Shown: positions 9,501 to 54,483, counted from the first letter of the stretch. The stretch is 64,000 bases of DNA from Microthyrium microscopicum (GCA_010405405.1 MU004243.1:367340-431339); one strand, 5' to 3'. Numbers and translations: made by a program. Notes: a model not told the origin generated them from the sequence alone.

Positions 9501-9550
9501 ACGACAACGGCACATAGCCAGAACAGAGTAGAGCTCCTCTCTGAAGCCAT
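6533..9550 (-). CDS. het-c: Heterokaryon incompatibility HET-C family protein with Gly-rich and repeat-rich C terminus, 4 exons
   Basis: Signal peptide followed by AFGAGNIAS, WRHGDIED, VYFGNWLRDYSQAVD, RPEEHIDNPKDY, HCMEDYAAHSNYVE and DPTHSMLSKDHF. Exons about 9550..8791, 8688..8383, 8333..7046 and 6995..6533. Confidence 0.93.
6660..6960 (-). repeat. Coding imperfect tandem repeats (YGRQERQQES / SYGREESGGYGGNSG) in the het-c last exon
   Basis: A block of about 64 nt (CCACCATAGCCACCGCTTTC...GACCGTAGC) occurs at about 6681 and about 6828, together with many shorter GACCGTAG/GACCGTAA units. Confidence 0.85.
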
Positions 9551-11150
9551 GATACGAGGCTCACTTCGGATTCTGATAATGGAGGGGTAAATTTCTTCAA
9601 AGTGCTACAAAACGTCAGTGCTTCATCAGCGGGTCCTTCTGATATTGGCGTCTGCTTACAAAATCTTGGGTGAAGGCGGAGAGGTAGGAGCTGAACAGGA
9701 TATCAAAGTAGTCAAGTATCGAGTCAAGAAGGTTTTGAACCAAAAATATAGCTTGTTTTAGGTGTAGGAGGGGAGAATTGAAGGAGAGTTGGTGGGATGG
9801 CGGGATGGATGGGCAAAGCTTCTGCATCTCAGCCTTGGCGACAACGTTTGTTGCCTTTTTGTGGTGTTGCCAAGAAGGCAGGTCTTACCCCTTATATGAT
9901 CCATGATCACCAACTGTACCACCACCTTGGGTGACCCTCGACCCACCCCTTTTACTACCTGGCGTGCCTGGGTAGGTACGGTACGGTATCGCAGGTACTT
10001 TATCCTGAGCCATTGGCAAGTATCGTGGACCACATTACCTTTTTATCGTCCTCTGGCTACTAGTTTTGAGTGCAATCGGCTACCATAACTCCCTCTTTTA
10101 CCAACAGGTACCAAAGGACTTCTATTGGCGATCCATGACCGCTTCCTTTACATGTCGATGATAGGTTGTACTCAGCATTTGATGTAACGAGTTGGATCAA
10201 TACTGCCACCAGTCCGCAGCATGGTCGACTTTCTCATGGGCCATGTGGTTGACAAGAGGAAAGGGGAGGCCTTCATATTCAAAGACGCCAATTCAATAAA
10301 GATACATTTAATGTCTACACTGCCCATTTCCAGGTAGTAAGGTACCTCTGGTGTACGTTCCATCAAAATCGCCAGTCCAGTCTAGCCAATCACGCACGTG
10401 TCGCACTGCCATATCTACACCTGCAGGCTACCACCAGGCTGAGCCTCTGCGGCTGACATCAAGATCTCTCTCAACTCTTCAACAGCTATGTTAGGTACCT
10501 ATCTTCAACTATTTTCTTGAGCGGCCAATTAGCACCGAATTATGAGAAGCCCACACTCGGTAGAGAAAATGGAATATTAAATCGACCTATAATCTGAACG
10601 TCATCATCTGAAGGTTCAGCTGCACCCTTGATGACTGCAGGACGCCCATTAGAGGTAACGTTACAAGGTGAAGCACAAAGCTGAGAGAAACAGCTTGCAT
10701 GATCAAACCTGTACCAATGTTAGCAGAAAACGGACGCAGTATCCGAGCTTCTTTGCAGAGAGGCCGGCCAATTTCGATTATCGTCAGCTATAGTACCCAA
10801 TCGACACATATTAGTCTGTTGGTGGTTTGAACCACCAATTGCGAGAGACCAGTAATGTCTCGTGAATACCTATCCTCCTAGCGGACTAGGAAAAGCGGTG
10901 CGAGGCTTAATGAACATGCCAGGATGTGCAAGAAACCCGGATTCAGCTGGTAACGAAAGAATCACTTTTACAAAGGCAATCATTTAGCGTGCACCACCAT
11001 GCAGAGCAGTTGAGTAAGTTCGTTGACTTGGACAGTGGGCACAGAATGTAATACATGGCTAAGCCTAAGTGAAAGGCAAGCAGTCTAATAGCTTGTCAAA
11101 TATTTCCCCCCATCTCTTCGAATCTGCTTTCCATTTTTCCAGTCAGCAAA

Positions 11151-26541: not shown

Positions 26542-27296
26542 GTTGGGCGGGAATTGAGATAATTGTGAGAGGGTATGTGGGCGAAGAAGGTGAGGAGGAA
26601 GAATCTGTTATCGTAGAAGCCTTAGACTATCAAGACAAGATCATGAGACACATGCCAAGACAGACCTTGGTGGAGGTTGGTCGTTATTCCTGCTGCAAAA
26701 TTCGCCTGCGTCATTGTCTTGGCACTTGGTGCACGGACTGTTGACTTTTCCCCCAACACCAAACTTGGTATCGCGAAGCCCCTTTTCCTTTGCTTTCCCA
26801 TACTTCATGATTACTTCTCCATCAGGCTGTGCTTTGAGCAGAGCACATACCATTATTTTGCTCGTATTACACTCTTTCTGATCCCTTGCTCCAACTTTGT
26901 TTATGCAATCGTCCTATACATGCGCTTGAAGTGCACATGGTGAGCCATGAGTCTCATACAACTTCTAGCAGCTTGTATACCTAGGTTGAGTATGATTGAA
27001 AATGATTGACATAAATCAAAAGCGTGCTTTATGCGTAGTAATCTGCCTTGAAGCGAGAATGAAGAGGCAAGATTCCGGGCGTACGAGGTCTTGGTAAAAT
27101 AATCTTGTGAAATCTACTAAACTTAGAGCGCAAGATCCGATGGTAACAGCCTTGTCAGGTTGCATCTCATCCTTAGATCTTCTCCTAGCTATTCAGTCAT
27201 TGAAAGTTCAGCAGCTATCGATGACGTAAATATATAACTTGGACTGTGTCTGGCTTAATAACTGTCTCATAGTTTCATCTTCTTCCTCTATTTACA

Positions 27297-28199
27297 ATGG
27301 CATTTCAGAGTCTTCGAGCTCGAATGCAGCATCTATCTAATCGAGAACTGCGAGTAATAGACCATGTTCATCTTTGGTTGAATGTTCTACTTTTCATCTG
27401 TTTGCTTGCTATATTTTTCACACTAGGTTTGGATATGCTCTTATTCCGCCTTTTCCATCGTGGATGGCAGAATGCGCACTTGACAGGGATAGCTGCGATC
27501 ATGGCTTGCTCCTATCATACAAAGTCCTTGATCCTTTGTGACAATGCTAACGCGACGACTAGATCACCGTGGTACTTGTCTATGCTTGCGGTTCTTGTTG
27601 CTGTCTGTGCGGTGTGAAATGTAGGAATCGAGTAGACGAGAGAGGTTATCTCACTGGTATACAAGACATAGTTATATTGTTTCCAATGTACTTGGCACTT
27701 GTTGTCCTCTTCGGCCTTGAGGGACTTCCTGTCTCTTGTCAAAAGGTTATGTACTACGATGATTCGGAGCATCATGGCAAGCGAAGCGTGACTACACGAT
27801 CCCTTAACTTCACTGACTGTGGCGGATTTATGGGGGTATTCTATCCTGCACAGAGTGGGCAAAAGTTATAACTCTTGCGGGCCATCGCCCGCGGACATGG
27901 TTCAGACGTTCAGCTCCGCATGCGTAATACTGCAGGGAGGATATGCCACGGTACTTGTTGCGTTGTATGGGCGCAATTCAAACTCTCAAAAACGCGATCG
28001 GTTAACCAGATACATATCTTGCAGAGGACTTCTCATACCAATTGCAACCGCATCTTGGACAGTGGCTCATAACCGTTTGCGCCATACAGTTGTACCTGCT
28101 CATGGGGATCAGTCTATGCTCGATCGTTCAGAAACTACAAATGTAGTCCTGCCAGGAGGAGAGCCGGAAGGAATAGAACGAATACGAGCAATACACTAA
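27297..28199 (+). CDS. Hypothetical multi-TM (about 4 helices) membrane protein, multi-exon
   Basis: Hydrophobic segments are spread over three frames and separated by intron-like sequences with branch points. The first donor appears non-canonical, so the model is uncertain. Confidence 0.45.
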
Positions 28200-28998
28200 C
28201 ATGTCTACCCCATTGCTACAATTGAATGAAAGAACAATACCATGAAAAGTATTAATCTTAATGTTTTTGTTTCTTTTGCACGTTGTTGAACTCGTACCTT
28301 GTAAACCATTGAAGCATATTTCGACATGAACAGTCACGTTTTGCGTGCTTTAGAATAGCAAGGATATAAATTTGTTCTGTCTCAATAAACGTGTTTCAAA
28401 CTTATTACCTTGCCATATTCAATCAAAGCTTCTAGATCAACCTATAGAAACAATTCAGTACCTCCGAGAAACTGGCCGAATAGTCTCAAAAACAGCTCTT
28501 GAGACTCGCTAAACAGCTGCTTCAAACAGTTTGTTGTTTACTCCATGGTTCATGAATATTCTCAGCGAATCAACAGTCGTCTTCTACAACATGTGGAAGC
28601 CCCAATTGGTCGCGTACAATTAATGAAAAAGAGACTCGGCCGGATTGACCTACTTACCAGTAGATACTTCGAAAGGCAACTGCAACAGATTAATAACCTA
28701 CGACCTTGGCTCCTATCTAGAGACCATGACGGGTTAAATGGAATTCCAACCCCTGGTTTTAAGGATTCCGAATTGCTGACTAACGCCCTGCAACCGCAAA
28801 GGGGTGGTTCGCAGCATCTCCACCTCCAACTTTTTCTCCACTTTCGAACACTCTTGAGTCTTGCCGGATTGTGGGACAAGAGATAACGTTTCTCAAGGTT
28901 TCAAGATGATCCGCGGCTTTTTAGCCTGCGCAAACCATTAATCAAGGAGACTTTTGGTGAAATTTGACATGACGCCGACGCGCACGCATGCAGAGGGC

Positions 28999-31421
28999 AT
29001 GCCCCACAGGAAGCTTGCTTGTCAAGTTTGTGGCACTGTTTACGCCAAAAAAGAACATTTAGAGGCAAGTCATTTTCAAGCAACATTTTCAAGCCATATC
29101 AGTGTTAACTGGTCACCAGAGGCACACCCGAATACGTAAGACTCGGCCCATGATTTAAGGTGACGCCAATGCTTACCATGTTATGCCCATCGCAGATACT
29201 GGTGATAAGCCATTTTCTTGTTCGATATGCGGACGAGCCTTTAGCCGTCAGGACTCTTTGGCACGACACAAAGGTCTGCATCAACGCCAGCGGCCTGGTC
29301 GAGCCCCAAGCAAATCTTCCCAGGAAAGGACGACGCGTGAGAGGGATCTCCCTCAGCCTTCAGTTGCTCAAAATCCTTTGAATAAGCAGATTCGTAGCAC
29401 GCCTTCAGCTACTACAGACTTCAATTCGATCTCCTCCGAAGGTGGAAATATCGGATTGAACAGAACTCCAATTCCAGATCCACAGCTGATGTGGCCCGAC
29501 TTGGAACACCTGTATCAAAGTGTGATAAGCTATGATACTCCAACACAACCTCAACCAGAGTTAGATCCGTTACAGTTTCCTACGACTGAGCCGGGCCATT
29601 TTGGAGTTGCCTTGCATGGATTCCATTCATCCGCAGGAATTTTAGACCAGAACGGTGGACTCATCACTCAACAAAGACCGCAGGCTGTACATTATGTTAG
29701 CCGTATGGTATCGGCCGCAGTATGTCTAAGTTGCTCTCGTAGGATAGATTTGTGATCGATTACTAAAACTTCGCAGTCAGAACAAGTCAACGAAGAAATC
29801 AACGCTTCTTCAATAACTTCCAGATTCTTCGATGAGTGCTTACATATGTACTTTACACGCTTTAATCGAACATTCCCAATTCTTCATCAGCCAACCTTTG
29901 TACTAAATGACTGCACACACCCACTCTTATTGAATGCAATTGCATTAGGCTCACTATATCTCGGAACTCCCGATGCTGTCGCGAAAGTGCGTTTGAGCAA
30001 CTGTTCCTCGATCATATAAATAGATTTTAACGATAATATTAGGGCGAAGCATTATGGCGACTGGCACACACGGCCGTTGCAACATCCTGGCAAAGCTTGA
30101 TTCAACATCGTGGGCAGTACGATTCGTGCAGTGGCATTCAGTTGGTGCTGACAGCACTTCTTGGGCAAACTTATGCCTATTTGTCCCGAGTAAGTACTGG
30201 TATTGGCTACTATTGAGACCATACTGACTGCTCCAGAATCGTGCCCTCAGAACTACTGGTCATGTTTTCCACTCCCTTGGCTTTTTCTGGGCGAGACATA
30301 CAGGAATGTTGGACGTACCGCCGATAATCCTTCAAGAGGTACCTTCGAAAGATGCCCCAAGAGCTGAAAAAACACATCGATGGCAAATATGGGCTGCCAA
30401 CGAGATACAGAGACGAGCCATTCTAGGTCACTACATACTTGACGGGCAAATTGCGACTTTAGCCTGCAATCCAACAACCGAAAGACATGCGTCCAACAAG
30501 CTTACGTTTCCCATTGACGAGGATGCATTCGCAGCAGAAACAGTGGAAGAGTGGCTGTCAAAAATGAAAGTAGACGAGCTAGGACGTGACAACAGCTTCA
30601 GCGCGTTGTTCGTCAGGCTATTCTCGCCGAATGCCGATTATACGGCCATCACTCAGCAAGCCACTCCGATATCACTGAGAGTTATTTTAGAGGGCATACA
30701 GTCCATTGCACAAGAGTCTCGAGGTTCACCAACCTCTATTCTGGGTGTTCCTTCTGCTGAAGATATCAAGTTTGCCTTGAGTAAGACATTTGATATAATC
30801 ACAACAAGTCCACAAGTTCCAGAAATTGATAGACTGGAAGCAATCGTGAGGTGGCACGGGATCTGTTTGGATTTTGAGGTGGATGCAGCCGCAATGTGTC
30901 GAGCCTTGTGTGCCCAATACGGCGTTCCGCAAAATATATTCCATGGGGGTGTCCCTCTTAGGTATTTCCAGACAGATCTGAGAACATGGGCGCGGACCAA
31001 GAGTGCACGCAAGGCGCTTCTCCACGCAATAACAATGGTGGAGATTATCGAACAATTACCTCAAGGGCGTTCTAATGATATACACCTTCCCGCATCCTTA
31101 TTTGCAGCTGCAACGGTTTATACGGCGTTTTCTCTTGGAGGGGAATCTACCGTCGTTCTTCCTACAATCATTCCTTGGAGAGATGTGGATTCTGTGGGGA
31201 ATGGTACAGAAAGCATGGAACAGCCGCTGCACGACAGCATACATACCTTGGACAAGTATCTTAATCAGCTTCCTCTGACCAATAGTATTCTCACTCGGAG
31301 AAAAAACCTGCTATACGAATTAGGCTTTGTACCAAAGATGTTGCGGTGCATCGCGGAGCAGTGGGGAATTGCCTATGAGATGGCAGCAATCGTGGACCGG
31401 TGGGTCGCGACTTTTCGGTAG
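28999..31421 (+). CDS. C2H2 zinc-finger transcription factor with fungal MHR (Fungal_trans) domain, multi-exon
   Basis: Spliced CQVCGTVYAKKEHLERHTRIH-TGDKPFSCSICGRAFSRQDSLARHKGLH, then YFTRFNRTFPILHQPTF, LLLNAIALGSLY and WAANEIQRRAILGHYILD. Confidence 0.9.
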
Positions 31422-32102
31422 GTTACTCAAGTAGCCTGTGTATAAATATTTCAGATCCTGTCAAACAATCAAATAAAGCCAGCTTGGCTTTCCCTACCCA
31501 AATCATACAAGCGTTTATAGGCGTAGAAACAGTTAGACACGGAACACCCGAGCTACTCTGGGAGTCTGGGGATACTCTCTCGCATTTGGTGCAAAAGGAG
31601 AAGAGCGATTAAAACAAAATCTCCAATCCCCACAATCTCCACAACAAGCTAATGATGATTACCAGTACATACGGTGGATATATTTAGGCCTTGATGCACC
31701 GTTGGGTTGAATATATGTTCAAGCTCTCGATATGCTGTGAATTCGATATTAGTATTGATACGTCAGGTCAACAATTGAAGCCCTCGGGCAGATGCCAGCC
31801 TCTTGTTCAGGCTATGTTTTTTGATCAGTAAGGTTATGCGTCCTCATAAAGGAGAAAGGCGCAGAACCCCTTGAATTTATTGGCTTTTAAGATCGCCATT
31901 CTAACATCATTGTGTGTAGTAGGGTAACAATACATAGGTAAGTACTTCTTATTGTCAACCGGTTTACCTACAGGTACTACCCACAGGTAGCACCAAGAAT
32001 TTTAGATATTATTAGCTTGTGGAAAAATCTCTTTCACTGCTTGGCATATTAAATAATACGCATCGAAATGTGGTATGTACAATTTCTCCGTGAGATTAGA
32101 AG

Positions 32103-32822
32103 CTAGATGTTGGCTGCACCAGCTTTTGAGTACTTCTTATATAATTCTGGTAACTGGCTTCCCAAGATTGACATTTCTTCAGATGCATGCTGTAGCAAAC
32201 CGCGGGCAAGGGAGGGATCAATTAGCTTTGCACGCTCTTCTACCGTTGTCCAGAGCGGTTGGCCGTCAATAGGCTCGAGATCACCTAGCCAGAACCTTGA
32301 ACGCATTCGGCAGCCATCAGCAGTATCCTGCACGAGATGTATAAGATGTCCGAGCCGCATCCTCCCCCCAGATTCATCGTCCCATGCATTGACAGTACCG
32401 CAAACAGCGGTGGAGTAATTGTTGATCTTGAACTCTTCTTTCCAGTTAGCACCAAAATAGGATCCAGGATCTAGAAATGAGATTGCCAAACTCGACGTCT
32501 GAGGTCCAATTTGTTCTTTCACAAGATGTGTTCCTCCAATGTAGGTCGAGTTGTTATCCCTTGGGCCATCCCAATCGCTAAAGAAGTGATCTCTTGGATG
32601 CCACCACTTGTATTGTTCTGTTGTGTGGATGAAGCCAAACCACCAATCGATCATTTTGCCGGAGGCGCCTTTCATGTATGTGTGCGCCGCAACATGGTGC
32701 ATCCCATCAGAAGTGACGGCATAACCCGCTTCGAAGGGCAAGTAATCATTGGACAGTAGTAAATTGGCGTCTCTGAGGAGGATTGGGTGGGCCTGGCCCA
32801 AAGGTTCATAGTTGGTAGCCAT
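32103..32822 (-). CDS. PhlG-family C-C hydrolase (2,4-diacetylphloroglucinol / phloretin hydrolase-like)
   Basis: YLPFEAGY...DG...VAAHTYMKGASGKMIDWWFG...YKWWHPRDH...GGTHLVKEQIG...GHLIHLV...GCRMRSRFWLG...LLQHASEEMSIL..LPELY, matching the PhlG pattern including H/E/H..E metal-ligand positions. Intronless. Confidence 0.85.
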   Translation of the reverse strand: MATNYEPLGQAHPILLRDANLLLSNDYLPFEAGYAVTSDGMHHVAAHTYMKGASGKMIDWWFGFIHTTEQYKWWHPRDHFFSDWDGPRDNNSTYIGGTHLVKEQIGPQTSSLAISFLDPGSYFGANWKEEFKINNYSTAVCGTVNAWDDESGGRMRLGHLIHLVQDTADGCRMRSRFWLGDLEPIDGQPLWTTVEERAKLIDPSLARGLLQHASEEMSILGSQLPELYKKYSKAGAANI

Positions 32823-33550
32823 ACTGTAGAACAAGTGAGGTTGAATTTGGATTTAATGTGAAGTTTAGTCCGGCGAGATGAACCAGTGACAGGGACGGAT
32901 GTATATTATAAAGGCCAAACAGACGTATGCGATACCGAACAACGTACACAAGCACATGCCGCTCTCATGCCTGCCATCCAATGGCGTCCTTACGTTCTTA
33001 AGAATAGGGCAAATCGGAACGGCGCCCGTTCGTATCAATTCATTGAATAGTTACTTAGCGTCGGCTACCTCGTAGAAAGAATCACTGTTCTCTACTTTTT
33101 TGAATAATGGCTTTAATTTAGTGTGATACTATCTACGCCGCAGTCTGACGAGCAAAGAATCTACTTTGTGTCGAACACTGTAAGATTAATCCCTCGCACA
33201 TAAGCAGACGAAACAAATTCTTAAAAGCACGTCTAATAGAGTGGAAAGTCACAAAAGATTGCCAACCAAGTACAGTAGGGATGCTAAGGCAACTATCGTG
33301 ATGAATGGAGCGTAGCAATGGCTCTGTCGAGCATACTTGTATCAGCTGTTGTAAACGACTCCGAGATACAATATTCTCTTCATAGCGGAAGGCGACTCAA
33401 GAGAGCCTGTCTTGACGTTAGTCGAATTACAAGAGAAAGACTCCATGTGGAGAACATCTCGATGGCGGTATCAGAAAAGTATTGATTAGAACATTGAAAA
33501 GAAAAGACTACTAATTATACGTCTGACCGGATTTTCTGGGTACAATTGCC

Positions 33551-34144
33551 TTATAATTTGGATCTAGTATGCTCTAGCAAAAGTGGTATGTTATCCTTGA
33601 GATATTCTACAACAGCATCCGGGCCCTTTTCAACCTGTATGTACCTGTCAACAATAGTTGCACTACGAGTATTCACAACCTACTTGCAACCCTTGAGGAA
33701 TAGAGTGGGTTTTGATATTCGGCACGATGCTCTTCGCTTCCGCAATGATTGACTGAGCCTGCTCGGGTGTCCACATTGATGCAGTGAACTACATGCGTTC
33801 AGTAATAGTCTAGGATCTTGATGAGGCATTTTAGGACACTGACTAGAAGTTCAGGCTTCTCCTTCTGAATTATTCCACGAACCTTAGAGTATTAGTATGT
33901 GGCCATGATTGTATCGGCCGCTCAAATGACCTATAGCAAATGACACACACTCTGCTTGTACATCAAATGTAAATATTCTTGCGGAGAAACTTACTGCTTG
34001 CATACTGTCGGCATTTCCTGCATGGATAATCGTATAGCTTTCTTTTAGATCCTCAACCACCCTCCCAATAAGTCTTTTTGCTCTTTCCGGGGCTGTATTT
34101 ACCGTAACAAGGCGGAAGGGTCCAAGAGGTTTGGAGATCGTCAT
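33551..34144 (-). CDS. Small conserved fungal alpha/beta protein of unknown function, multi-exon
   Basis: MTISKPLGPFRLVTVNTAPERAKRLIGRVVEDLKESYTIIHAGNA...FTASMWTPEQAQSIIAEAKSIVPNIKTHSIPQGLQV...GPDAVVEYLKDNIPLLL, joined across GT-AG introns. Confidence 0.75.
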
Positions 34145-34318
34145 AACGACAGAACGTACAATGTGTGGAGAAAACCAGTTTCAAGTCAACGTATTCTACC
34201 TTGGGCTTTGTAACATTTTTTTCCAGCTTGAGTCGGCACTTCCGCCAGAGCCGATCAGTTTATGGGCTAAGGAATCGTCAAGGCTTTCCCGAGATATTCC
34301 TTTCTATATTCTTCATTG

Positions 34319-34343
34319 CCCCACAATCTCCACAATGCCCCAC
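34319..34343. promoter_or_regulatory. Clustered SYGGRG-type C2H2 binding sites (CCCCAC/CTCCAC/CCCCAC) in a divergent promoter
   Basis: CCCCACAATCTCCACAATGCCCCAC lies between the divergent starts at 34144 and about 34640. It is the reverse complement of CreA/AmdX-type SYGGRG sites. Confidence 0.45.
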
Positions 34344-34639
34344 GGACGGTTCACCTCATGAGGCTCTTTTTGAGCTTAGGTCAAGTTGGAATAGGTTGTA
34401 TCCATGTCTGGACCAAAATCGGCTCATTCGGATTGGAGCATGGACTTCGTTGTAGTCTGTTTTTAACTTTTCAGATGTCATATTCGATATGGGTCTCGGG
34501 TGATATGGTGGATATATGGTATTGCGAACGATATTTCTAATGAGTAGGGTAGATAATAGAGCCTTGTCCATGTATTTGACTAGCAGCAAGTTTTGAAGTA
34601 CCTTTTCTCCTATGATAATTTACGATTGACGAATGTTAG

Positions 34640-36587
34640 ATGAAGAATGAAATGGGAAACACTGGAAGCAAATGGCTTTCAGGTTGGCTGGGACTGAATC
34701 ACGAAGAGGCCGAGAAGAATAAGCCAGTTCAGGACATCCCTATCTTAATCATCGGTGGTGGCCCGACTGGGCTGTTGCTCGCACATCTCCTGTCAGAGTT
34801 GAAAAGTATGATATACCTACCTAGTCAGCTCATTAGCTCCTGAGACATTAACGCAAAGTTAGTAAAATCTCTGGTCGTCGAAAGATATCCGCATAGACTT
34901 GGAGCTCCCAAAGCACATGCACTATCGCCGAGGTCACTGGAGATTTGCCGTCAGTCAAATCTAGACGTTAGAAAGATAAGAACCTTGGGAACATCCAGAA
35001 AAGATGCTTTCTGGGTCAATTTTGTCACCAGTCTCAGCGGAGAGAGAATTGGTGTTCTTCCCTACGAACGAATGGACACTAAGGTCTTGGAAGTTACTCC
35101 TGAAATGATTCACAATATACCACAACCAGACTTTGAAGAGTTCTTGAGCGAGAACCTGACCCACAGCGAGTATGCGGAAATCCGGAAAGGCGCCTCCTTC
35201 GTTGCATTGAACCAGTCACCTGGATCAAAGACAGTTATGACCACGGTTGAAGAGCGCAAGACTGGAAGACAGTATCAAATACAATCGCGCCATGTTATCG
35301 CCTGCGACGGAGCTCGGAGTAAAGTCAGAGCCTTCCTAGGCATTGAGAGCGAAGGAGAAGAGACCTACGACACCATGATGACTATACATTTCAATGCCGA
35401 TCTGCGACACATACTAGGAGACAGAGTTGGTATGCTCCATTGGGTTATGGATCCCGAAGTGTCGGGATTTGTGATTGGATACGATCTATCTGGCAATCAA
35501 GTTCTTATCTGTAATTTTGATCCAAGGACAATACCGTTAGAAGATTGGAATGAGCAACGATGTCGTCAAATAGTAGATAAGGCCATAGGAAAGCAGATCA
35601 CTTACGATATTCTTGGCTTCAGACCCTGGACTCTCAGCCGAAAGGTTGCTAAGGATTACCGAAAAGGCAATGTACTTCTGGCTGGAGATGCTGCCCATGC
35701 TTTTCCACCAACAGGTGGACTCGGGCTGAACTCAGGGCTCGGCGACGTTCATAATCTTGCATACAAACTGGCGGGTGTACATAAAGGCTGGGCATCAGAG
35801 TTCATTCTTGATTCTTATCAGTCAGATCGCCAAATGGTTGCGAACGTGAATGCCCAACAAAGCGTGGAGAATGGTAAGCGGATATTCGGACTTCTGAAGT
35901 CGATAGGGACTGCAGGAATCAAAAACCCAGTTGATGCGCGGGCAAACTTGATGAAGACCATACATGATCCCACTAAACAACAAGAGATACAGGAGCAGAT
36001 CGAAGCCCAAAGAGAGCATTTTGACAATGTAGGCATTGCTCTTACTTCTTGAAAGCTCAATCTAACATTTCTTCCAGCTCGAACTTCATATTGGCTACGT
36101 CTATGATAGTAAAACAATTCCACCTCACGCCTCTAATTACACTAGGAAATGGGTCAAGGGAGCAGTATTCCCTCACACATGGATCTCTCTTCGGCAGTAT
36201 TCCTGTCACTTTCCCAAAGATCCTGTTGATGTTTCCTATGTGGACGAGTTCTCTGAGCCCGACATTCAATCAAGGAAGTTCTCAACCTTGGACCTACTGG
36301 CATTGGATAGCTTTACGATGATCGCAGGTCCGGGCATAGATTGGAAGAGGAAAATTAGGGCGTTGCACCGTGTACTGCCAAAGGTCGCCCCAAAGGTACG
36401 AATATTCTGTTTGGATGAAGATTTTGAGCTCAGCACTTCGTCTGATGTGCAGTGGGCCCGAGAGTCTGGGCTACGTGATGGACGGGCATATCTGATCAGA
36501 CCAGATCAGCACATATTGGCATGCTTCGACCAAAGCACGACGGAGGTGGGGATTTCAAAGGCTCTAAGAAGTCATGTTGGTCTTTAG
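34640..36587 (+). CDS. FAD-dependent phenol monooxygenase (2,4-dichlorophenol 6-monooxygenase-like, FAD_binding_3), 3 exons
   Basis: ILIIGGGPTGL (GxGxxG), PKAHALSPRSLEI, VIACDGARSKVR, LAGDAAHAFPPTGGLGLNSGLGDVHNLAYKL and a C-terminal LIRPDQH. Introns about 34806..34862 and 36029..36077. Confidence 0.92.
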
Positions 36588-36630
36588 TTCATCTGCTGGA
36601 CAGCAATAGATATCAAAATATAGGCTGCAT

Positions 36631-39057
36631 TCAAGCTTGCTGTCTAGCGATCCACTCCTCATGAAGCTTCTTCTGCTTTTCCCACTCCTTGAGCAGCTTC
36701 TTCCGCTTGTTTTTCGCCACTTCCTGACCCTTGGCATCCTTGGTTGGAATGCCATCTGCGTCCCACTCTTTGTATTCATCTGTCTTAAACATCGTCAAAT
36801 GGCTCAGTTTTGCCTTTTCTTCCAGTAACTTCTTCTTCTCGGCCTCTTCCGCCTCTCTTCTAGCCTTGGCAGCCAGCTTGTCTTTAGCAGCCGAGTCTTT
36901 CTTTGCAAGTGCATCTTCGAGCGCCTTGTTCAATGGTCTCACCATAGCTGGCTGTGTATCTCGATCTTCGAGGTAGATCTTGAGCTTCCAAAGATGGGAG
37001 TCGCGCAGCTTGTCGCATAGTGCAAGTAGGTCCTTCGCCGCAGCCTTTTCGTCTGCGAGCTTTTTAACATCGGCACGGAATTGGACGAGCACATCTTCGT
37101 AAGCCTTAGAATCATTGCTATGGGCTGATGATGGCACCGAAACGTTTTCAGTTAGCTGTGCTATGGATGCGTAGTCAAGCACTCCAGAGCGAGCTGCTTG
37201 CCGGACATGATCCCGAAGCTGGGCTACCGGGTATACGAATGGCACCGCGGGCGCTGGAATGTCGACACCGGACCAGCCGACGCGATTCGTGTCTTTGAGG
37301 TCGCCTTTCTCATCTAGACCAAATATTGTGACAATTCGCGTTATGAAACGCGCAATCGATAGTGTAGTTTCATCAGCTACGCCTTTTGTTGAGTTGAAGT
37401 CAGTGACTAATTCGGATATTATTCTCATAGCCCCTGCTGTGTTGAACGAGTCACGCAGAGCCTCGTCTATGTCCGATTTCGCCTTTTCTAATTTTCCAAG
37501 AAGCTGTTTGTCTACGTCGGTATTCTTTGCACTAGCTGGTGATGGATTTCTGGTAGTGTCGATAGCTTTGAGGAAGAAGTTGTTTAGCTTGTCTTCCCAG
37601 CCTGCTGTTGTCATAAGGAGAGCATCGGTGATTTCTACACCATCCTGCCAAGGGCTCATCAGTAAGCAAATGCGTAATGATCGAGAGTTCCATTCTCCTG
37701 ATTGAAGAGCTTGTTTGATGGTAGTAAAGTTCTTGAGGCTCTTGCTCATTTTCATGCCTTGAATGCTGAGGTGCCCCATGTGGATGAAGTAATTTGACCA
37801 CTGCTCTTTCGAGCCCTCTGAGGACCAGTATGCCTCTGATTGGGCGAGTTCGTTGTCATGATGAGGAAATCGAAGATCTACACCCCCGGAATGAATGTCG
37901 ATTGTTTTGCCGAGGACTTCCGACGCCATAACAGAGCATTCAATATGCCAGCCTGGTCGTCCATTACCCCAAGGACTATCCCATGACGGCTCGCCTGGCT
38001 TGCTTGCTTTCCACAGAGCAAAATCGCTTTGATTGCGTTTGGCTGCAGCTTTATTGGACAGCGAGCCTTCACCATCAGCCACCAGACTGGTGTCATTTCG
38101 ATTCCAAGGTTCTAGTCTGGCATATGGATTTCCCGCCTTTTCAAAGGCTTCGATGTCGAAGTAGACTGATCCGTCGCTCGTAGCGTAGGCAAAGTCATTC
38201 GCTATAATCCTTTCGATAAACTTGACAATCTGGGGTCCAAACTCTGTGACTCGAGTCACAACATCAGCATCCAAGACATTTAGGTTATGCATATCGTCGA
38301 GGAAACGTTTTTCGAACTTTTGGGTAAGCTTGGTGAAAACGGTATGGTCTTTAGAGTCAATGGTTGACCCATGCAACGAGTCTAGATATGGGAGAAGAAC
38401 ATCCTCAGCTTTAATATAAAACTCTTCTTGAGCGGGCTGTAGGCCGTTCGAAGAGGCTAAGAGCCCTCCTGCAGCTGTGCGAGCAGTGTTGATGTGCATT
38501 CTGATCTTGGCTTCCTTGTCTGCAGGAGACTCTGTATCGCTCTCAAGGGCCTTGCCATCGAGCACTCTCTTGTAATAGTGGATGACTTCCGCCTCAAGGT
38601 TTTCAGGCGTGGTGTCGGAAGGTAGTAGAGGAAGGTTCTTTTGGATGTATTGTGTGAATGCGTGGTTTGTGTCTGCGACTAACGAGTCATCGATGCGGTC
38701 ATGTTCCATTTTGTATTTTTCAAGCAGGTATTGCTGACGGCCTCTAAGGATGATTTTGTCGTCGACGTCCGTTATGTTCATAACAAACTTGACTTGAAAG
38801 CCGAAGTAGTCTTTCATGATTCGACGAAGGATATCGGTTGAGACATAATTCCTCGCATGGCCTAAGTGTGCATCGTCGTAGACAGTTGGTCCGCAAGTGT
38901 ACCAAGTGACCACATCTCCTTGAGGGTCAAGTGGAACAAAATCATCCTTCCTTCTTGTCAAACTGTTGTACACCTTGAGGGCCGGGATTTGGATGCCAGC
39001 TGCGGGTGCTTTTGGAGGCGCCCATGGTGGCTGCTGACGAGCTGTTTTTGATGCCAT
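36631..39057 (-). CDS. CRS1: Cysteinyl-tRNA synthetase (in-frame upstream ATG at 39246)
   Basis: WYTCGPTVYDDAHLGHAR (HIGH), MNITDVDDKII, DFALWK, GRPGWHIECS, DIHSGGVDLRFPHHDNE and KMSKS. Confidence 0.97.
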   Translation of the reverse strand: MASKTARQQPPWAPPKAPAAGIQIPALKVYNSLTRRKDDFVPLDPQGDVVTWYTCGPTVYDDAHLGHARNYVSTDILRRIMKDYFGFQVKFVMNITDVDDKIILRGRQQYLLEKYKMEHDRIDDSLVADTNHAFTQYIQKNLPLLPSDTTPENLEAEVIHYYKRVLDGKALESDTESPADKEAKIRMHINTARTAAGGLLASSNGLQPAQEEFYIKAEDVLLPYLDSLHGSTIDSKDHTVFTKLTQKFEKRFLDDMHNLNVLDADVVTRVTEFGPQIVKFIERIIANDFAYATSDGSVYFDIEAFEKAGNPYARLEPWNRNDTSLVADGEGSLSNKAAAKRNQSDFALWKASKPGEPSWDSPWGNGRPGWHIECSVMASEVLGKTIDIHSGGVDLRFPHHDNELAQSEAYWSSEGSKEQWSNYFIHMGHLSIQGMKMSKSLKNFTTIKQALQSGEWNSRSLRICLLMSPWQDGVEITDALLMTTAGWEDKLNNFFLKAIDTTRNPSPASAKNTDVDKQLLGKLEKAKSDIDEALRDSFNTAGAMRIISELVTDFNSTKGVADETTLSIARFITRIVTIFGLDEKGDLKDTNRVGWSGVDIPAPAVPFVYPVAQLRDHVRQAARSGVLDYASIAQLTENVSVPSSAHSNDSKAYEDVLVQFRADVKKLADEKAAAKDLLALCDKLRDSHLWKLKIYLEDRDTQPAMVRPLNKALEDALAKKDSAAKDKLAAKARREAEEAEKKKLLEEKAKLSHLTMFKTDEYKEWDADGIPTKDAKGQEVAKNKRKKLLKEWEKQKKLHEEWIARQQA

Positions 39058-48543: not shown

Positions 48544-50556
48544 ATGGCAGAAGTAAATGGGAGGACCTTGGAACCACCATACCGCGGGCTATCAGTCATT
48601 GGCGACGGCAACAAGGCTAGAGCTACACAACTAGAACACGCGAGCAGCAGCGACAGCAATGGCGTGCAAGAAGACTCGAATGGTATCGGCGGCATCAGCA
48701 GAGCAAAATGGCTCGCCATCATCGCCCTCTGTCTCTCATACACAACCACAGTACAGCAAAATGCATGCACTGCTGCCATCGTCAAACACATCGATGCTGA
48801 ACTAGGTCCGTCTATCACCCTACAATGTCACATCAAAACTAACACTTGCCTCAGGCCCAACAAACTACTACAACTGGATCCTCTCCGCCTACTCAATCTC
48901 CGTCTCCGTCGCCCTTCCCCTCGCCGGCGGTCTCTCCGACATATTCGGCCGCAAACCCTTCTTCCTCGTCGGCACGCTAATCGCACTCGTCGGCACCGTC
49001 GTCGCGCTCGCCGCACAAAACGTCCCCATGATCATCGCCGCCATGGTCCTCAAAGGTATCGGCGCAGGATCTCAGCAATTAGCCTTGGCAGCGATTGGGG
49101 AGTTGGTGGAGAATCGGCAGCGGGGAAATGCACAGGCGGCGTTGGATATTGTGACGTTGCCGTGGAGTATTTTCGGACCGTTGACGGGGAATGCGATGGT
49201 TAAGTATCAGAAGTTGAGTTTTAGGATTAATTTTATTGTGGGGATCGGGTTGAATGTTTTGACGTTGGTTGCTATACAATTTTGGTATCATCCGGTATGT
49301 CCATGAGGAGGTTCGACGCGTGGGTTTTCGCTAACGATTGATGTAGCCGCCGGCAAGGTTGGTGCCGGGAGTTACGAAGAAGCAGCGTTTGGCTGCTCTG
49401 GATTGGATTGGAGTCCTTTTCATGGCTTTTGGAATCGTGTTGACTTTGATGGGACTCGCTTTTGGCGGCGTTCAATTCCCTTGGTCTTCTCCTGGCACGA
49501 TAGCCCCGGTCGTTCTTGGGATTATGTCCCTTATAGCGCTTGGAATTTGGGAGTGGAAGTTTGCAAAGGAACCATTCTTTGCGCACGAACTATTCATTGG
49601 AAAGGCTAGGACATTTACGATTCTACTACTTCTCACATTTGTTGGCGGAATGTCCTTGTATACAGCAGCCGCATTCTGTAAGCCTTGAGCATATATGTTA
49701 TGCGCGGCTTGACACTAACATATTATAGGGACTCAACAGTGCCAGTACATGTTCTTTCGCGATCCCATCAAGATAGGTGTATCTGCAATACCCGGCGGAG
49801 TAGGTGGAGCAATCGGCGGTTTCCTAGGAGGCATACTCATTGGAAAGGGGCCCGGTCTTGGTTCCAACAATATCCTCATATACAGCTCCGCCATGAAACT
49901 AGTCAGCGATATAGTCTTCACGTATGTCATTCCTCTCACTTTCCCCTGATCTAAAGTATACTAAACCTACCCACAGCACACTCACCCCCTACAAATTCCA
50001 ACTTGCACTCGGAATGGGTTTCCTAGCAATGTTCGGCATGGGCTTCTCCCTAGTCGCCCTGATAGTCTGCGTCCAACTCGCCTCCGAAGACCACCACCTC
50101 GGCCTCGCCACCCTCGTCCTCGGCTCAATCCGCGCAATCGGCGGTTCCGTCGCCGTCACCATCTACTCCAGCATCCTAATGAACACCATCCAAGAAGACG
50201 CCGGTCGACGCGTCGGCAACCGCGTGATCCCCATGGGCGCACCACGCTCCTCGCTACCAAAACTCATCCCCCTATTGACCGCTGGTAAGGATTCAGCGGC
50301 GTTGAAGTTGCCAGAGATTACGCAAGATATTGTGGACGCGGGGAATGAGGCGTTGAAGTGGACGGGGACGTTGGCGTTTAGGAGGATTTATTATTCGGCG
50401 TGTGCGTTTTCGGCGCTGGCGTTGGTGGCGAGCTTTTTTGTGAAGGATATTTCGCATAAGATGACGGATAATGTGGCTATTAGGCTGACGAATGAGAAGG
50501 GCACGGCGAGGGAGGTGAGGAAGGGGGAGAGTGGTAATAGTACTTCATTTCGCTGA
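48544..50556 (+). CDS. MFS efflux transporter, TRI12-like (14-TM DHA2-type), multi-exon
   Basis: GGLSDIFGRKPFF (MFS motif A), AAIGELVENRQRG, LDWIG, FPWSSP and LGSIRAIGGSVAVTIY, with multiple GT-AG introns. Confidence 0.88.
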
Positions 50557-51388
50557 GGTACAAGTAGTAATTGTATTCATCGCGACTACCCTATGCTTAT
50601 CGTGGGCTTTAGCTCGACATGAGGACCACCACTGGCGTCGGCAACTTTTCACTGGATGGATCTGATCGCAGGTAGATCGATGGAAGCTCATCAGCATACC
50701 TCGCAGCTCGTGTGAAGCTCCTAAGGACGGGATCTCAAGGCAACTCTGCCAGGAAATTATGGCTAATGAGAAGTGCGATATGAAATTCTCATATCTTCTT
50801 GTCCGCTCAGTTTAATTCCGTGAAAATTCTACGATTTTGTGACTATATAACAAAAAATATCTAGGCTATGAGACTGATGCTTAGACATGAAGGATCTAGC
50901 CTCTGGCTGCTTGAGGCTCTCGAAAGTGTCAATGTCACTGGAGGAAATGGAGCCATACCATTGGTAATACCATTCAGATTCGGCTCAAGCTGAAAGTCCC
51001 AAATCACCACGGAGTAGAAATAAGTGTATCTTGGACCGGCGATCAAGCAGAACCTTGGCGAGTCCATCAATGGACGGAGAGACGAAGCAAATGTAAAGCA
51101 TCAGCTCAGCTTCATTGTTGTCTGTCATTTACCTACGTAAGCCAATAGAGATGAAAAACAGTCGTTCGTGCGGGGTGAAGAGCTTACCTAGACGAGGCCG
51201 GGCGCCTCTGAATCACGTTTGAGTTTTTACCTTATATTGGCCATGCTAACGTCCCTTGAGCAAACCTTTTCTGTCTGCCTTTGTAGTGTTGGAAACATCT
51301 GCTAGTCGGTAGTTGACTGCTACCAAAGATCGACCCGTTCGACGAAACTGCATGACATCTATTCCCTGCACTATCATTGACTCAAAGG

Positions 51389-52045
51389 ATGTCCGATGAA
51401 CCAAAGATCATAGTCGAGCAGGCCTACGACCATATAGCAGATTGGTATCTAAACTGGGTCAAAGACCAGGATTCTCCACGAGAAAGATACACCGACAAAG
51501 TCTTAAAAAATGCGCCTGCAGCGCCCCGCATTCTCGAACTCGGCTGCGGCCCTGGCATCCCCATAACGCGCATGCTTCTCGATCGCGGAGCTCAAGTCAC
51601 GGCCAACGACATCTCCACTAAATTCATCAACATGGCGAAGGAACGATGCCCGGAAGCGACATTTCTGCCAGGCGACATGATGGCTCTGGATTTCGAGCCT
51701 GCGAGCTTCCACGGCATTACTAGTTTCTTCACGATCTTCCACCTTCCACGAGAGGAGCAAAAGACAATGCTCTCCAAGATCAACTCCTGGCTTAAACCTG
51801 GCGGCATGTTTGTGATGAACCTCGCAACTATGGACGAGGAAGAGATTCATGGAGAGATGATGGGCTACGGCATGTTTTGGAGCAGTTTTGATGTTGAGGA
51901 CAATAAGAAAATGGTGACGGATTCGGGGCTAGATTTGGTCGAGACGGAGTTGCTAGAGGCAGGGGATGGGAAGCTGGAAGAAGATGATCCAGATTATGGT
52001 GTCAAGTTTCTATGGCTCGTGGCCAAGAAGAAGCTCGATCTTTGA
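51389..52045 (+). CDS. Class I SAM-dependent methyltransferase, paralogous to 22044..22748
   Basis: AYDHIA, ILELGCGPG, VTANDIS, GDMMALDF, HLPREEQ, WLKPGG and GMFWS. Confidence 0.9.
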   Translation: MSDEPKIIVEQAYDHIADWYLNWVKDQDSPRERYTDKVLKNAPAAPRILELGCGPGIPITRMLLDRGAQVTANDISTKFINMAKERCPEATFLPGDMMALDFEPASFHGITSFFTIFHLPREEQKTMLSKINSWLKPGGMFVMNLATMDEEEIHGEMMGYGMFWSSFDVEDNKKMVTDSGLDLVETELLEAGDGKLEEDDPDYGVKFLWLVAKKKLDL

Positions 52046-52476
52046 TAGGGAATAGACTGGGCTCTTCTTTGAGGGCTCTAATCTCACTGCTCGGCTCCTT
52101 CAAATTAGGTAGTTCACGACTTCCAGTTGACTTCACGGCGCTCTTGTCAAATGCATAATGCTTCTTAGAACGAATGTGTAGGCTTAGCATCACACATACA
52201 TTATTTAGCGGGGATAAAGTCTGAGATTTTTGCAAGTCCAAACTTAAAAGCTCAACGTACAGTTTACAAGTCTAAAATCCCACGCGGTCACTTGTACCAA
52301 GGCAGAACGAGATGTAGTTAGAACAAGGCTGAGAGTCAGCCTTGTGCACGAGCCAAATCTAGCACTATTTCTAGATCTGCTTCTGATTGGCTCTCCAAAT
52401 ACTAACTTCGACATCAGAGCATCATTGTTCGAAGCTCACAAAATGTGAATACCTTTGCAACATTTGTCCTTTCCAT

Positions 52477-53660
52477 ATGTATAGGTCGTCCCTCCGGCAC
52501 CTAGCAAGATCTCTTCAACTGCCGCACCGGAATGTAATTGGGTTGCGATTCTACGCAGTCCAGACCCCCGGCGCGCCAATTGTCGAGGTCTTCAACAATG
52601 CCGTACGCGATTCTTCGACATAAATAATAGAGGGAGCTCTGCTAAACATTACAATCACAGACGAAATGGGCACAGAAGGAGCGCGCCGCTCAGAACGTCG
52701 AGCTAAGCCGACAGGTCGACTACCTCCGAGATGAGGTTGCGTCACGACTATCTGAGCGTCTTCTCGTAAGCTCAACATGCCTCATCTCCATCCAGAAACT
52801 AATAGGAACAGGATATAAAACGCGACTTCGACCACGTTCTCGATCTTGGCGCAAATGCCTGTCACGTCGCTCGAATGCTGACCAAAACGAATCCCGACGA
52901 CTACTCCGCACAACCAGTCGCCGAGCCACTCGCCTCACGCATCGGCCGCATAACCGCCGCTGAAAACTCGCGCTCCCTCTTGTACCGTGATGCTGACCTC
53001 GACTTCAATAACAAAATGGAGATAACGAGGGATGTGCTGAAATCACCTGAAACGCTGCCTTATGATGCAGGCACGTTCGACGCAGTTTTGAGCTCGCTAT
53101 CGTTGCACTGGATCAACGATTTGCCATCCGTGCTGGCGCAAATTAATTCTGTTCTCAAACAGGATGCTCCCTTCATTGGCGTCATGTTTGGAGGAGATAG
53201 TCTCTACGAGCTGAGAACATCCCTCCAGCTGGCTGAGCAGGATCGACGAGGAGGCGTCAGCACACATACTTCTCCACTGGCTGATGTGAGGGATATTGGA
53301 GGCCTGTTACAGTCGGCTGGCTTCAAGCTTCTTACCGTGGATGTTGATGATATCGTGATTGATTATCCTGATATATTTGCACTTATGCAAGACTTGCAGG
53401 CAATGGGCGAGTCCAATGCTGTTCTAGGCCGCGAAGGGTCAGGAATACGCAGAGACGTGTTAGCTGCTGCGAGTAGTATATACAAGGAACTCCACGGGAA
53501 CGAAGACGGGAGTGTACCAGCTACATTTCGACTCATATACATGATTGGCTGGAAAGAAGGCAAAGGACAACAAAAACCATTACCACGAGGAAGCGGCATG
53601 GTCAGCATAAAAGACGTCTTAGAAGGCAAAACAGAGGGCCCAAAACCAGATGATAAATGA
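52477..53660 (+). CDS. NDUFAF5: Mitochondrial complex I assembly factor NDUFAF5 (methyltransferase fold), 3 exons
   Basis: Presequence, QKERAA..VDYLRDEVA.RLSERL|DIKRDF..VLDLGA, SSLSLHWINDLP, GGDSLYELRTSLQLAEQDRRGG, DLQAMGESNA and PATFRLIYMIGWK. Confidence 0.92.
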
Positions 53661-53712
53661 TCAAAACATTGTATACGTATCATTCATGATTACTCATCCC
53701 TATCCCCTTCCA

Positions 53713-54483
53713 TCACTGCCTATCCAACTCTGGATAATCCCTAAATATTCCCATCCCATACTTCAACCGTCTCTCACTCCCCAAATACTCCTTAATCCCC
53801 TTCTCACCCTCCACACTCGGATAAAACGTGCCAAATAACAGTGGATAATCGCCCTCCCGTGCCTTCATCTCCTTTGGAAATGCAAACTTCAGCCCATTCA
53901 ACACCTGCCACACCGTCGTATCCGCATAACTCAAACTCTTGCCAACCATATACTTTCCTTTGCCCTTCCCCTCATTTCCCTTCAACGTCCTCTCAAAAAG
54001 CGAGCAGAACTTCGGAATCCTCATCTCTCTAAAATTACCCGCGGCACGTAACGCCTCCTCCTTCTGATCCTCATAATACAACGTAGTACCAACCGGATGA
54101 TGCGTATCATGAACCTCATTATTCAAATCCAGTGCCGTTAACGTCAGCGCATTGACGTAGTATGCATCCACTTCATCATCGCCGTTGAAACCGAGCGTTT
54201 TACTGAGATATAAGAGGATATTGGAAGTTTGCGTAAGAATCAGGTCTTTGCCATCTTTGCCTGCGCCAGCAACTTTCAGCATGGGCGGTGAAAAGGCGGG
54301 TGGGTTGCCATCGATGCCTGTGCACTCGGGTTTGCAGGATGCGTAGACGGGAGAAGGGTCGCCAGCGTTGGCGGGGTCGGTGTAGGGTGTGGAGGAAGCT
54401 TCCAGGAGGAGACGGATGAATTCGCCACGGCCGGGGACACCGCCGTGGTAGAGAAGGGTGTATTTGAGGTCGTTGGATGGCAT
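53713..54483 (-). CDS. Glutathione S-transferase
   Basis: YTLLYHGGVPGRGEFIRLLLE, FSPPML, LTQTSNILLYL, EVHDTHHP, LSYAD and GIFRDYPELD. Confidence 0.9.
   Translation of the reverse strand: MPSNDLKYTLLYHGGVPGRGEFIRLLLEASSTPYTDPANAGDPSPVYASCKPECTGIDGNPPAFSPPMLKVAGAGKDGKDLILTQTSNILLYLSKTLGFNGDDEVDAYYVNALTLTALDLNNEVHDTHHPVGTTLYYEDQKEEALRAAGNFREMRIPKFCSLFERTLKGNEGKGKGKYMVGKSLSYADTTVWQVLNGLKFAFPKEMKAREGDYPLLFGTFYPSVEGEKGIKEYLGSERRLKYGMGIFRDYPELDRQ

Follow-up and report, generated by a model that had tools for sequence, protein, structure and literature searches.

The 64,000-nucleotide stretch of the Microthyrium microscopicum genome analyzed here (GCA_010405405.1, MU004243.1:367340-431339; in the following "the window") harbors, within positions 28969-36587, four adjacent genes encoding a C2H2 zinc-finger transcription factor (TF), a hydrolase of the PhlG/phloretin hydrolase family, a small protein and a FAD-dependent monooxygenase (FMO). 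A reading made from the sequence alone had proposed that these genes form a co-regulated module, by which the fungus disarms a bacterial antifungal or a plant dihydrochalcone. M. microscopicum is a Dothideomycete living in leaf litter. Gene models were derived from open reading frames (ORFs) and Pfam matches, from the reading of splice sites, from annotated proteins and from contigs of run X1, which we presume to be RNA; these contigs were used for exon joints only, not for expression levels. The gene set proposed by the sequence-only reading was found in its place by ORFs, Pfam, splice sites, database proteins and X1 contigs, but the TF gene starts at 28969, i.e. 30 nt ahead of the start given before (28999; Table 1). 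Joints with GT..AG ends were present in X1 contigs for all five introns of the TF gene, for all three introns of the small gene and for the first intron of the FMO gene, and the hydrolase gene was covered unspliced by a contig spanning 31968-32828. The deduced products of the small gene and of the FMO gene were identical (100%) to the M. microscopicum database proteins P0121 and P0241, respectively. The TF gene also possesses a micro-exon of 16 nt (29120-29135) between the introns 29065-29119 and 29136-29195; in the contig, the two sides of the joint are separated by 16 letters.

Table 1. Positions of the four genes, their exons and one intergenic region in the window
Feature	Coordinates	Strand	Remarks
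C2H2 zinc-finger TF with a weak fungal-specific (middle homology region, MHR) region	28969..31421	+	725 aa, 6 exons; Pfam, X1 joints, longest ORF of the joined exons
TF exons	28969-29064, 29120-29135, 29196-29719, 29777-29986, 30043-30189, 30237-31421	+	
Short-form DAPG_hydrolase (PhlG/phloretin hydrolase family), P0001	32822-32103	-	single exon, 239 aa
125-aa "no-domain short protein", P0121, AN0331/ATEG_04855 family	34144-33551	-	4 exons; gene model and X1 joints
Exons of the small gene	34144-33995, 33882-33844, 33788-33684, 33634-33551	-	
Intergenic region between the divergent small gene and FMO gene, presumed bidirectional promoter	34145..34651	.	position only
Group A FAD-dependent aromatic monooxygenase (FMO), P0241, ATEG_08831 type	34652..36587	+	609 aa, 3 exons
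FMO exons	34652-34805, 34863-36028, 36078-36587	+	

The hydrolase was compared with PhlG of Pseudomonas and with phloretin hydrolase (Phy) by profile, sequence and structure. It matched the Pfam family DAPG_hydrolase (PF18089) over profile positions 4-223 of 223 with an E value of 4.9e-46 (157.5 bits, cut-off 22.7). Only three distinct sequences were matched in the PDB, among them the phloretin hydrolase of Mycobacterium abscessus (5xe5, E 2.6e-20) and PhlG (3hwp, E 8.8e-13). An AlphaFold2 model of the hydrolase, calculated with 32 homologues as input, reached a pLDDT of 92.9. Foldseek aligned this model with the same two structures (5xe5_A, E 3.1e-16; 3hwp_A, E 2.0e-13; TM-score 0.73 each) at identities of 27% to phloretin hydrolase and 24% to PhlG; the next matches were Bet v1/SRPBCC proteins. 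Residues H79, E103, H212 and E216 align with His/Glu/His/Glu in both structures and are conserved without exception in the 32 fungal sequences aligned. Their equivalents in PhlG we take to be the zinc ligands of that enzyme (presumably those of He et al. 2010). Thus, the assignment to the PhlG/Phy family, already made from the sequence alone, is borne out by the Pfam and PDB matches, by the Bet v1-like fold and by four conserved putative metal ligands. The phloretin hydrolases (Phy of Eubacterium ramulus; 5XE5 and 5XEY of M. abscessus) are the best solved match. They differ from the window enzyme in that the latter lacks about 55 N-terminal residues, is eukaryotic and has an oxygenase as partner instead of a reductive pathway. 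PhlG, which has family, fold and aligned ligands in common with the window enzyme, belongs to the biosynthetic phl cluster with a TetR-type regulator; it is a zinc-dependent enzyme that cleaves a C-C bond and is highly specific for 2,4-diacetylphloroglucinol (DAPG), monoacetylphloroglucinol (MAPG) not being taken (PMC8003664).

Since the N-terminal segment is absent and 28 of 31 aligned fungal homologues (215-258 aa) have the same start, we assigned the hydrolase to a short-form subfamily; the other three models (274, 276 and 254 aa) are longer by N-terminal extensions. The subfamily occurs in Penicillium, Aspergillus, Venturia, Exophiala, Coniosporium, Cadophora and others. A word-indexed search yielded 153 proteins at E<=1e-5, of which the best besides the window's own was 67% identical. 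When representatives were searched exhaustively, 660, 298 and 23 proteins reached E<=1e-3, 1e-10 and 1e-30, respectively. The pear scab fungus Venturia nashicola possesses at least three hydrolase paralogues (P0031, P0064 and P0066), one of which is annotated "Phloretin hydrolase"; they deserve attention as the genus lives on hosts rich in dihydrochalcones. The closest non-fungal relatives (P0086-P0120; loci L006-L010) are bacterial proteins of 205-225 aa with 44-50% identity, one of them from a metagenome-assembled genome named Rhodobacter/Paracoccaceae. These short bacterial proteins are nearer to the fungal short-form hydrolases than the long PhlG/Phy forms are, and to judge from the sequences bacteria and fungi may have exchanged the gene long ago.

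The FMO showed a FAD_binding_3 domain (E 7.7e-64, 216.5 bits). Its C-terminal match to Rng_hyd_C was weak (19.9 bits, E 9.5e-4, under the cut-off of 27.5); for several homologues, PF21274 is listed in the precomputed column. P0241 contains the strings GGGPTG, CDGARS and GDAAH, which we take to represent the GxGxxG, DG and GD motifs of Group A flavoprotein hydroxylases. The best relatives in the PDB were aromatic hydroxylases, namely RubL (E 9.5e-48), GrhO5, 6u0p, RebC and 2-hydroxybiphenyl 3-monooxygenase (HbpA); phenol hydroxylase of Trichosporon was distant (E 2e-11). The family is large, with 1115 proteins at E<=1e-20, those listed being 60-70% identical across Pezizomycotina. Over 433 aa the FMO is 62% identical to P0317, a protein of Aspergillus terreus NIH2624 with 435 aa (corresponding to 1308 nt including the stop codon). 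Because the species, the length and both translated quantitative PCR primers (PWILSR and GDVHNL) agree, we identified P0317 with ATEG_08831. Primers of ATEG_08220 and of the two assayed A. nidulans monooxygenases, AN4576 and AN7684, matched no member of the FMO family. Compared with the 609-aa FMO, the gene model of P0317 is devoid of 12 residues in the GxGxxG region and of the entire C-terminal third; judging by this alignment, it is probably mis-annotated.

The TF contains two C2H2 fingers (zf-C2H2, E 1.2e-5, 25.9 bits, cut-off 25.2) and a weak match to Fungal_trans (E 5.5e-4, 19.5 bits, under the cut-off of 23), both obtained by Pfam on single exons.

The linkage of these genes was studied by scanning metagenome contigs with the hydrolase alignment, which gave 16 loci, and by searching the neighborhood with the window genes (tblastn and tblastx). 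Eight distinct loci were fungal-like (identity of at least 51%, GC content 44-53%); L004 and L013 were the same sequence, and L004 and L005 were about 88% identical in DNA. An FMO gene lay within 6.2 kb of the hydrolase gene in four of the eight (L002, L003, L004/L013 and L005); these four include every one of the three fungal-like loci that are flanked by 5 kb or more. At L003 the distance was 0.4 kb and a C2H2 TF gene resided on the opposite side. The order was FMO, C2H2 TF, major facilitator superfamily (MFS) transporter and hydrolase at L004/L013 and L005, and MFS, Zn2Cys6 TF, FMO and hydrolase at L002 (Pfam of neighbors). Homologous C2H2 TF genes thus accompany hydrolase and FMO at L003, L004/L013 and L005, and an MFS transporter gene is found at L002, L004 and L005. 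L001 revealed a weak C-terminal FMO fragment, and the short contigs L011, L012 and L016 nothing further. The linked loci differ in gene order and orientation and their hydrolases are 59-69% identical to one another, which argues for selection and not for the inheritance of one block. In Penicillium lividum, hydrolase (N7490_000453) and FMO (N7490_000454) have adjacent locus tags. Two more linked pairs, unconfirmed, are suggested by P0002 and P0245, each on a contig of 9,026 bp, and by P0054 and P0263, each on a contig of 53,732 bp. The conserved synteny indicates that the adjacency is more than chance; the metagenome loci and P. lividum corroborate that TF, hydrolase and FMO constitute a conserved co-located module.

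A central pathway of fungi via 1,2,3,5-tetrahydroxybenzene (THB) has been described by Martins et al. 2023 (PMC10832562). Its four proven genes encode the gallate monooxygenase AN4576, the DUF3500 protein AN10530, which probably cleaves the ring, the short protein AN0331 and a FAH-like hydrolase. Ascomycota contain three types of clusters, each around a flavoprotein monooxygenase and often, not always, with FAH-like, DUF3500, short-protein, MFS and TF genes (PMC10832562). The two types other than the one considered here provide THB from gallate and, presumably, from 2,4,6-trihydroxybenzoate. In Table S5 of this paper, ATEG_08829 to ATEG_08831 of A. terreus are listed under "Gallate and related gene clusters", being induced 470- to 3,300-fold on gallate. 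ATEG_08829 is assigned to IPR041526 (744 nt, 247 aa; log2 fold change 8.9), ATEG_08830 is an MFS transporter (11.7) and ATEG_08831 a monooxygenase (1308 nt; 11.6). Short protein, FAH-like hydrolase, MFS transporter and C2H2 TF are encoded by ATEG_04855 to ATEG_04858. The main text mentions neither ATEG_08829 nor IPR041526, DAPG or phloretin, and gives no role for ATEG_08831 (PMC10832562).

The size of ATEG_08829 and its position beside an MFS transporter gene and an FMO gene fit the loci found here. Like the window, the A. terreus locus encodes a hydrolase-like protein and an FMO of the same type, but its MFS gene is situated between the two and neither a short protein nor a C2H2 TF is listed beside them; the window is devoid of an MFS gene and carries both. 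The co-induction of the A. terreus counterparts on gallate, as tabulated in the supplement, supports the co-regulation which had been postulated from the sequence alone. On the other hand, the statement of that reading that no characterized fungal cluster of this composition was known is outdated, since the hydrolase-MFS-FMO trio of A. terreus appears in Table S5 of PMC10832562. The window cluster is a new member, from another fungal class and with another gene arrangement, of the cluster type published in 2023.

The small protein had been regarded as uncharacterized. This no longer holds, as a genetic role has been published for the AN0331/ATEG_04855 family: deletion of AN0331 leads to an accumulation of 5-hydroxydienelactone, and ATEG_04855 (357 nt, 118 aa) is reported to have no domains and a conserved Ser64 (PMC10832562). 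Relatives of P0121 (377 at E<=1e-3) are 70-90% identical in exon 1, no Pfam family was matched at E<0.01, and S67 is nearly invariant. The reverse primer of ATEG_04855 encodes KVPGLL, the exact C-terminus of the family member P0236 of Aspergillus leporis, which is 61% identical to the short protein of the window. AIPQGL, encoded by the reverse primer of AN0331, occurred in 25 of 120 family members if one mismatch was allowed (two of them being exact) and in none of 120 control FMOs. By size (about 118 aa), by absence of a Pfam domain, by the conserved serine near position 64-67, by restriction to Dikarya and by these primer-encoded peptides, P0121 matches the AN0331/ATEG_04855 family, of which it is a putative member. 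The A. terreus gene differs in its surroundings, lying beside FAH-like, MFS and C2H2 TF genes and not, as in the window, beside FMO and hydrolase genes. The possibility that the small gene is an unrelated housekeeping gene, considered in view of its strong conservation and its absence from the metagenome loci, was dropped after this match. Atlas clusters of the short protein were confined to Ascomycota. A fold search gave generic CheY/flavodoxin-like matches only (best E 4.6e-4, TM-score 0.5-0.62) and an Atlas structure search gave TM-scores of 0.64-0.71 to receiver domains, providing no mechanistic lead.

Bacterial loci were inspected for the neighbors of the short-form relatives. L009 (548-10633; bacterial-like, GC content 61%) harbors co-directional genes for Cyclase, short-chain dehydrogenase/reductase (SDR), 3-hydroxyacyl-CoA dehydrogenase (3HCDH) and BKACE, directly followed by a short hydrolase with 38% identity to the window enzyme. 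A second copy (44%) is located after ABC transporter genes (periplasmic binding protein, permease and ABC ATPase, all between the two copies), and a LysR regulator is encoded nearby. Cyclase, SDR, 3HCDH and BKACE are the families of the reductive phloroglucinol pathway, and DAPG_hydrolase has been noted in Mycobacterium versions of phloroglucinol clusters (PMC10470551). The arrangement at L009 therefore lends independent support to the view that short-form relatives deliver phloroglucinol. This gene set was detected in one of seven bacterial-like loci only; L006 contains genes for aldehyde dehydrogenase, Amidohydro_2 and a zinc-dependent alcohol dehydrogenase, L014 for a TRAP transporter and a SnoaL-like protein, and L008 for an ABC ATPase. 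L007, L010 and L015 had no informative neighbors. The bacterial PGR, DPGC, TfD and TAL clusters with DAPG_hydrolase (PMC10470551) resemble the window in that a C-C hydrolase stands beside phloroglucinol-consuming genes. They differ in that the downstream route is reductive and of the anaerobic type, whereas the window provides a flavin monooxygenase and, as we suppose, an oxidative route via THB.

The data suggest, with a probability of roughly 0.55, that the cluster feeds plant or microbial phenolics into the fungal THB central pathway and is the Microthyrium counterpart of ATEG_08829-08831, extended by a short protein and a C2H2 regulator. The short-protein gene, whose family acts in the THB pathway, lies head to head with the FMO gene, and it is this neighborhood which ties the hydrolase-FMO pair to that pathway. 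That we deal with a conserved, co-functional catabolic cluster connected with the THB pathway can be stated with good confidence; for the chemistry leading from an acylphloroglucinol via phloroglucinol to THB the chances are about even.

In this scheme we infer what the substrate is, that the hydrolase acts before the FMO, what the FMO forms and that the TF is the regulator. The zinc-dependent Bet v1-like hydrolase would cleave the aryl-ketone C-C bond of an acylphloroglucinol to give phloroglucinol and a carboxylic acid. Dihydrochalcones of the phloretin type would be the likeliest substrates, mono- and diacetylphloroglucinol possible ones. The FMO would then convert phloroglucinol into 1,2,3,5-THB at the expense of NAD(P)H. 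A DUF3500 enzyme encoded elsewhere in the genome would cleave the ring of THB, and the 125-aa short protein would convert the resulting 5-hydroxydienelactone. The C2H2 factor would switch the cluster genes on. Scanning of window ORFs (outside 19-47 kb those which did not overlap and had 130 aa or more, and between 18.5 and 46.1 kb a selection of 13 with 110 aa or more) revealed neither DUF3500 nor FAH-like genes, and the neighbor ORFs scanned at L002, L004 and L005 did not contain them either. C-C hydrolysis followed by ring hydroxylation, the sequence of reactions proposed at the outset, stays the best mechanistic reading, with putative substrates.

Several points weigh against this interpretation. 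About 55-70 N-terminal residues of PhlG and Phy are absent from the window enzyme, the alignments beginning at residue 61 of 5xe5 and residue 73 of 3hwp versus query residues 16-18. With this segment missing and an identity of 24-27%, a transfer of the substrate from PhlG or Phy is weak. The short protein was encoded at none of the 16 metagenome loci (tblastn/tblastx), so that, among the loci studied, its linkage is special to this window; according to PMC10832562, cluster types with such monooxygenases "often" include its gene. Moreover, in eight upstream regions of hydrolase and FMO genes no common k-mer was detected beyond shuffled sequences: 6-, 7- and 8-mers were present in at most eight, five and three regions, and these values were reached or exceeded by 14, 133 and 200 of 200 shuffles, respectively. 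The comparison with A. terreus includes the assumption that IPR041526 is the DAPG-hydrolase domain entry, which we take to be equivalent to PF18089. The sole inducer published for the A. terreus trio is gallate and no acylphloroglucinol (PMC10832562). According to the same source, mutation of the DUF3500, short-protein or FAH-like gene leaves the growth of A. nidulans on phloroglucinol normal, so that a passage of phloroglucinol via THB is not obligatory in this species.

Some of these points would also suit a cluster for gallate or tannin catabolism proper. The FMO might be a second, redundant hydroxylase producing THB from gallate or 2,4,6-trihydroxybenzoate, and the hydrolase might cleave a non-aromatic beta-diketone after ring opening or a gallate-derived ketone. 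Enzymes of the PhlG type cleave a beta-triketone tautomer in a retro-Claisen reaction, which speaks for such a function. So does the strong induction of all three A. terreus genes on gallate, in a medium free of acylphloroglucinols, and so does the AN4576 deletion mutant, which retains the consumption of gallate and growth on 2,4,6-trihydroxybenzoate, a result read as redundancy by its authors (PMC10832562). However, the THB pathway already possesses a C-C hydrolase, the FAH-like enzyme of the same paper, both solved relatives of the window hydrolase cleave aryl ketones of phloroglucinol, and at L009 a bacterial short-form relative adjoins a phloroglucinol-consuming gene set. The response to gallate could also be a cross-induction via THB or a later intermediate. 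On balance, we consider gallate or tannin catabolism an unlikely function of the hydrolase-FMO pair.

A dedicated detoxification of the bacterial antifungal DAPG, with the hydrolase as a functional equivalent of PhlG, is quite improbable. It would agree with the family of the enzyme and with the fact that some strains of Fusarium oxysporum convert DAPG into MAPG and phloroglucinol by deacetylation, the enzyme not being known (PMC5373426). But the hydrolase matched the phloretin hydrolase of M. abscessus better than PhlG in the PDB search, and the high specificity of the latter (PMC8003664) cannot be assumed at 24% identity. Furthermore, the best 120 of 153 hydrolase matches did not include any Fusarium protein, though Fusarium has the FMO. 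The DAPG-specific role, the first option of the sequence-only reading, is not supported either by the orthologous cluster, which has gallate as its only published inducer, or by the connection of the cluster with a central pathway of nutrition instead of an isolated detoxification step. Nothing favors DAPG over plant dihydrochalcones as substrate.

That the genes are mere neighbors without a common function is very improbable and largely refuted by the synteny. The absence of the small gene from all 16 related loci and the lack of a common promoter motif would be compatible with it, as would Penicillium herquei and Aspergillus wentii, in which the listed FMO match resides on another contig than the hydrolase (among the best 120 of 1115 FMO matches, so that an adjacent paralogue could be missed). 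Yet the linkage recurs with shuffled order and orientation among divergent hydrolases and is also found in P. lividum and, with co-induction, in A. terreus. A biosynthetic cluster, in which hydrolase and FMO tailor a polyketide in the manner of RubL, GrhO5 and the 6u0p protein, the closest FMO relatives of known structure, is scarcely credible, given that no match to polyketide synthases, nonribosomal peptide synthetases or terpene synthases was obtained among the scanned window ORFs, that the flanks encode proteins such as cysteinyl-tRNA synthetase (CysRS), that the FMO family, among the matches listed, shares over 60% identity in a great number of Pezizomycotina, as is usual for catabolic enzymes, and that the orthologues respond to the carbon source.

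The flanking genes are housekeeping genes. CysRS, which had been named as the downstream boundary of the cluster, was confirmed by a match to tRNA-synt_1e (E 2.5e-107); ribosomal protein S7e, a ribonuclease and a ThiF/rhodanese (Uba4-like) protein are encoded on the same side. Upstream, ORFs without a Pfam family (those at 27273-28199, a membrane protein in the sequence-only reading, gave no Pfam match), a CHCH protein and a methyltransferase were found. The X1 contig carrying CysRS (3,675 nt) extends in antisense direction (-) over the final third of the FMO gene (35479-36700) and on to approximately 39250, and contains a minus-strand intron (CT..AC on the plus strand) at 35509-35605, within FMO exon 2. 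It represents either a long spliced 3' untranslated region of CysRS, an antisense transcript over the FMO gene or an assembly merge of convergent transcripts. In other parts of the window, genes for two methyltransferases and a GST-like protein are found near a fragment of a TRI12-like efflux pump (49915-54504); together they may form another small group for detoxification or secondary metabolism. A Het-C heterokaryon-incompatibility gene was located at 7045-9604 (-) in two ORFs (Pfam Het-C, E 2.9e-126 and 2.6e-79).

If the cluster indeed channels acylphloroglucinols into the THB pathway, it would contain the fungal hydrolase for phloretin or acylphloroglucinols that has long been missing, along with a hydroxylase dedicated to phloroglucinol, and thus a third, hitherto unrecognized funnel into this pathway beside those for gallate and 2,4,6-trihydroxybenzoate; this is a tentative proposal, for which the odds fall a little short of even. 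The cleavage of phloretin to phloroglucinol by fungi has long been described biochemically and underlies the formation of toxins from phloridzin in apple canker. In the literature matching "phloretin hydrolase", a fungal enzyme was not the subject of a title or abstract opening among the matches listed. The genes for the degradation of phloridzin and phloretin were called largely unknown in a paper on Valsa mali from 2021 (PMC8361449), and the main text of the 2026 paper on FAMeDB, a curated database of fungal aromatic metabolism, contains neither phloroglucinol nor phloretin. A fungal acylphloroglucinol hydrolase and a phloroglucinol hydroxylase as a funnel to THB were not found in the literature searched, though the hydrolase gene may be drawn in Figure 3 of PMC10832562.

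The window and its relatives offer a concrete, conserved gene pair for study. If confirmed, the proposed reactions would assign a function to the induced but unexplained genes ATEG_08829 and ATEG_08831, would add a peripheral branch to the central pathway and would provide a eukaryotic C-C hydrolase for biocatalysis. They would also explain the use or inactivation of dihydrochalcones and, possibly, of bacterial DAPG by litter fungi and by pathogens of apple and pear.

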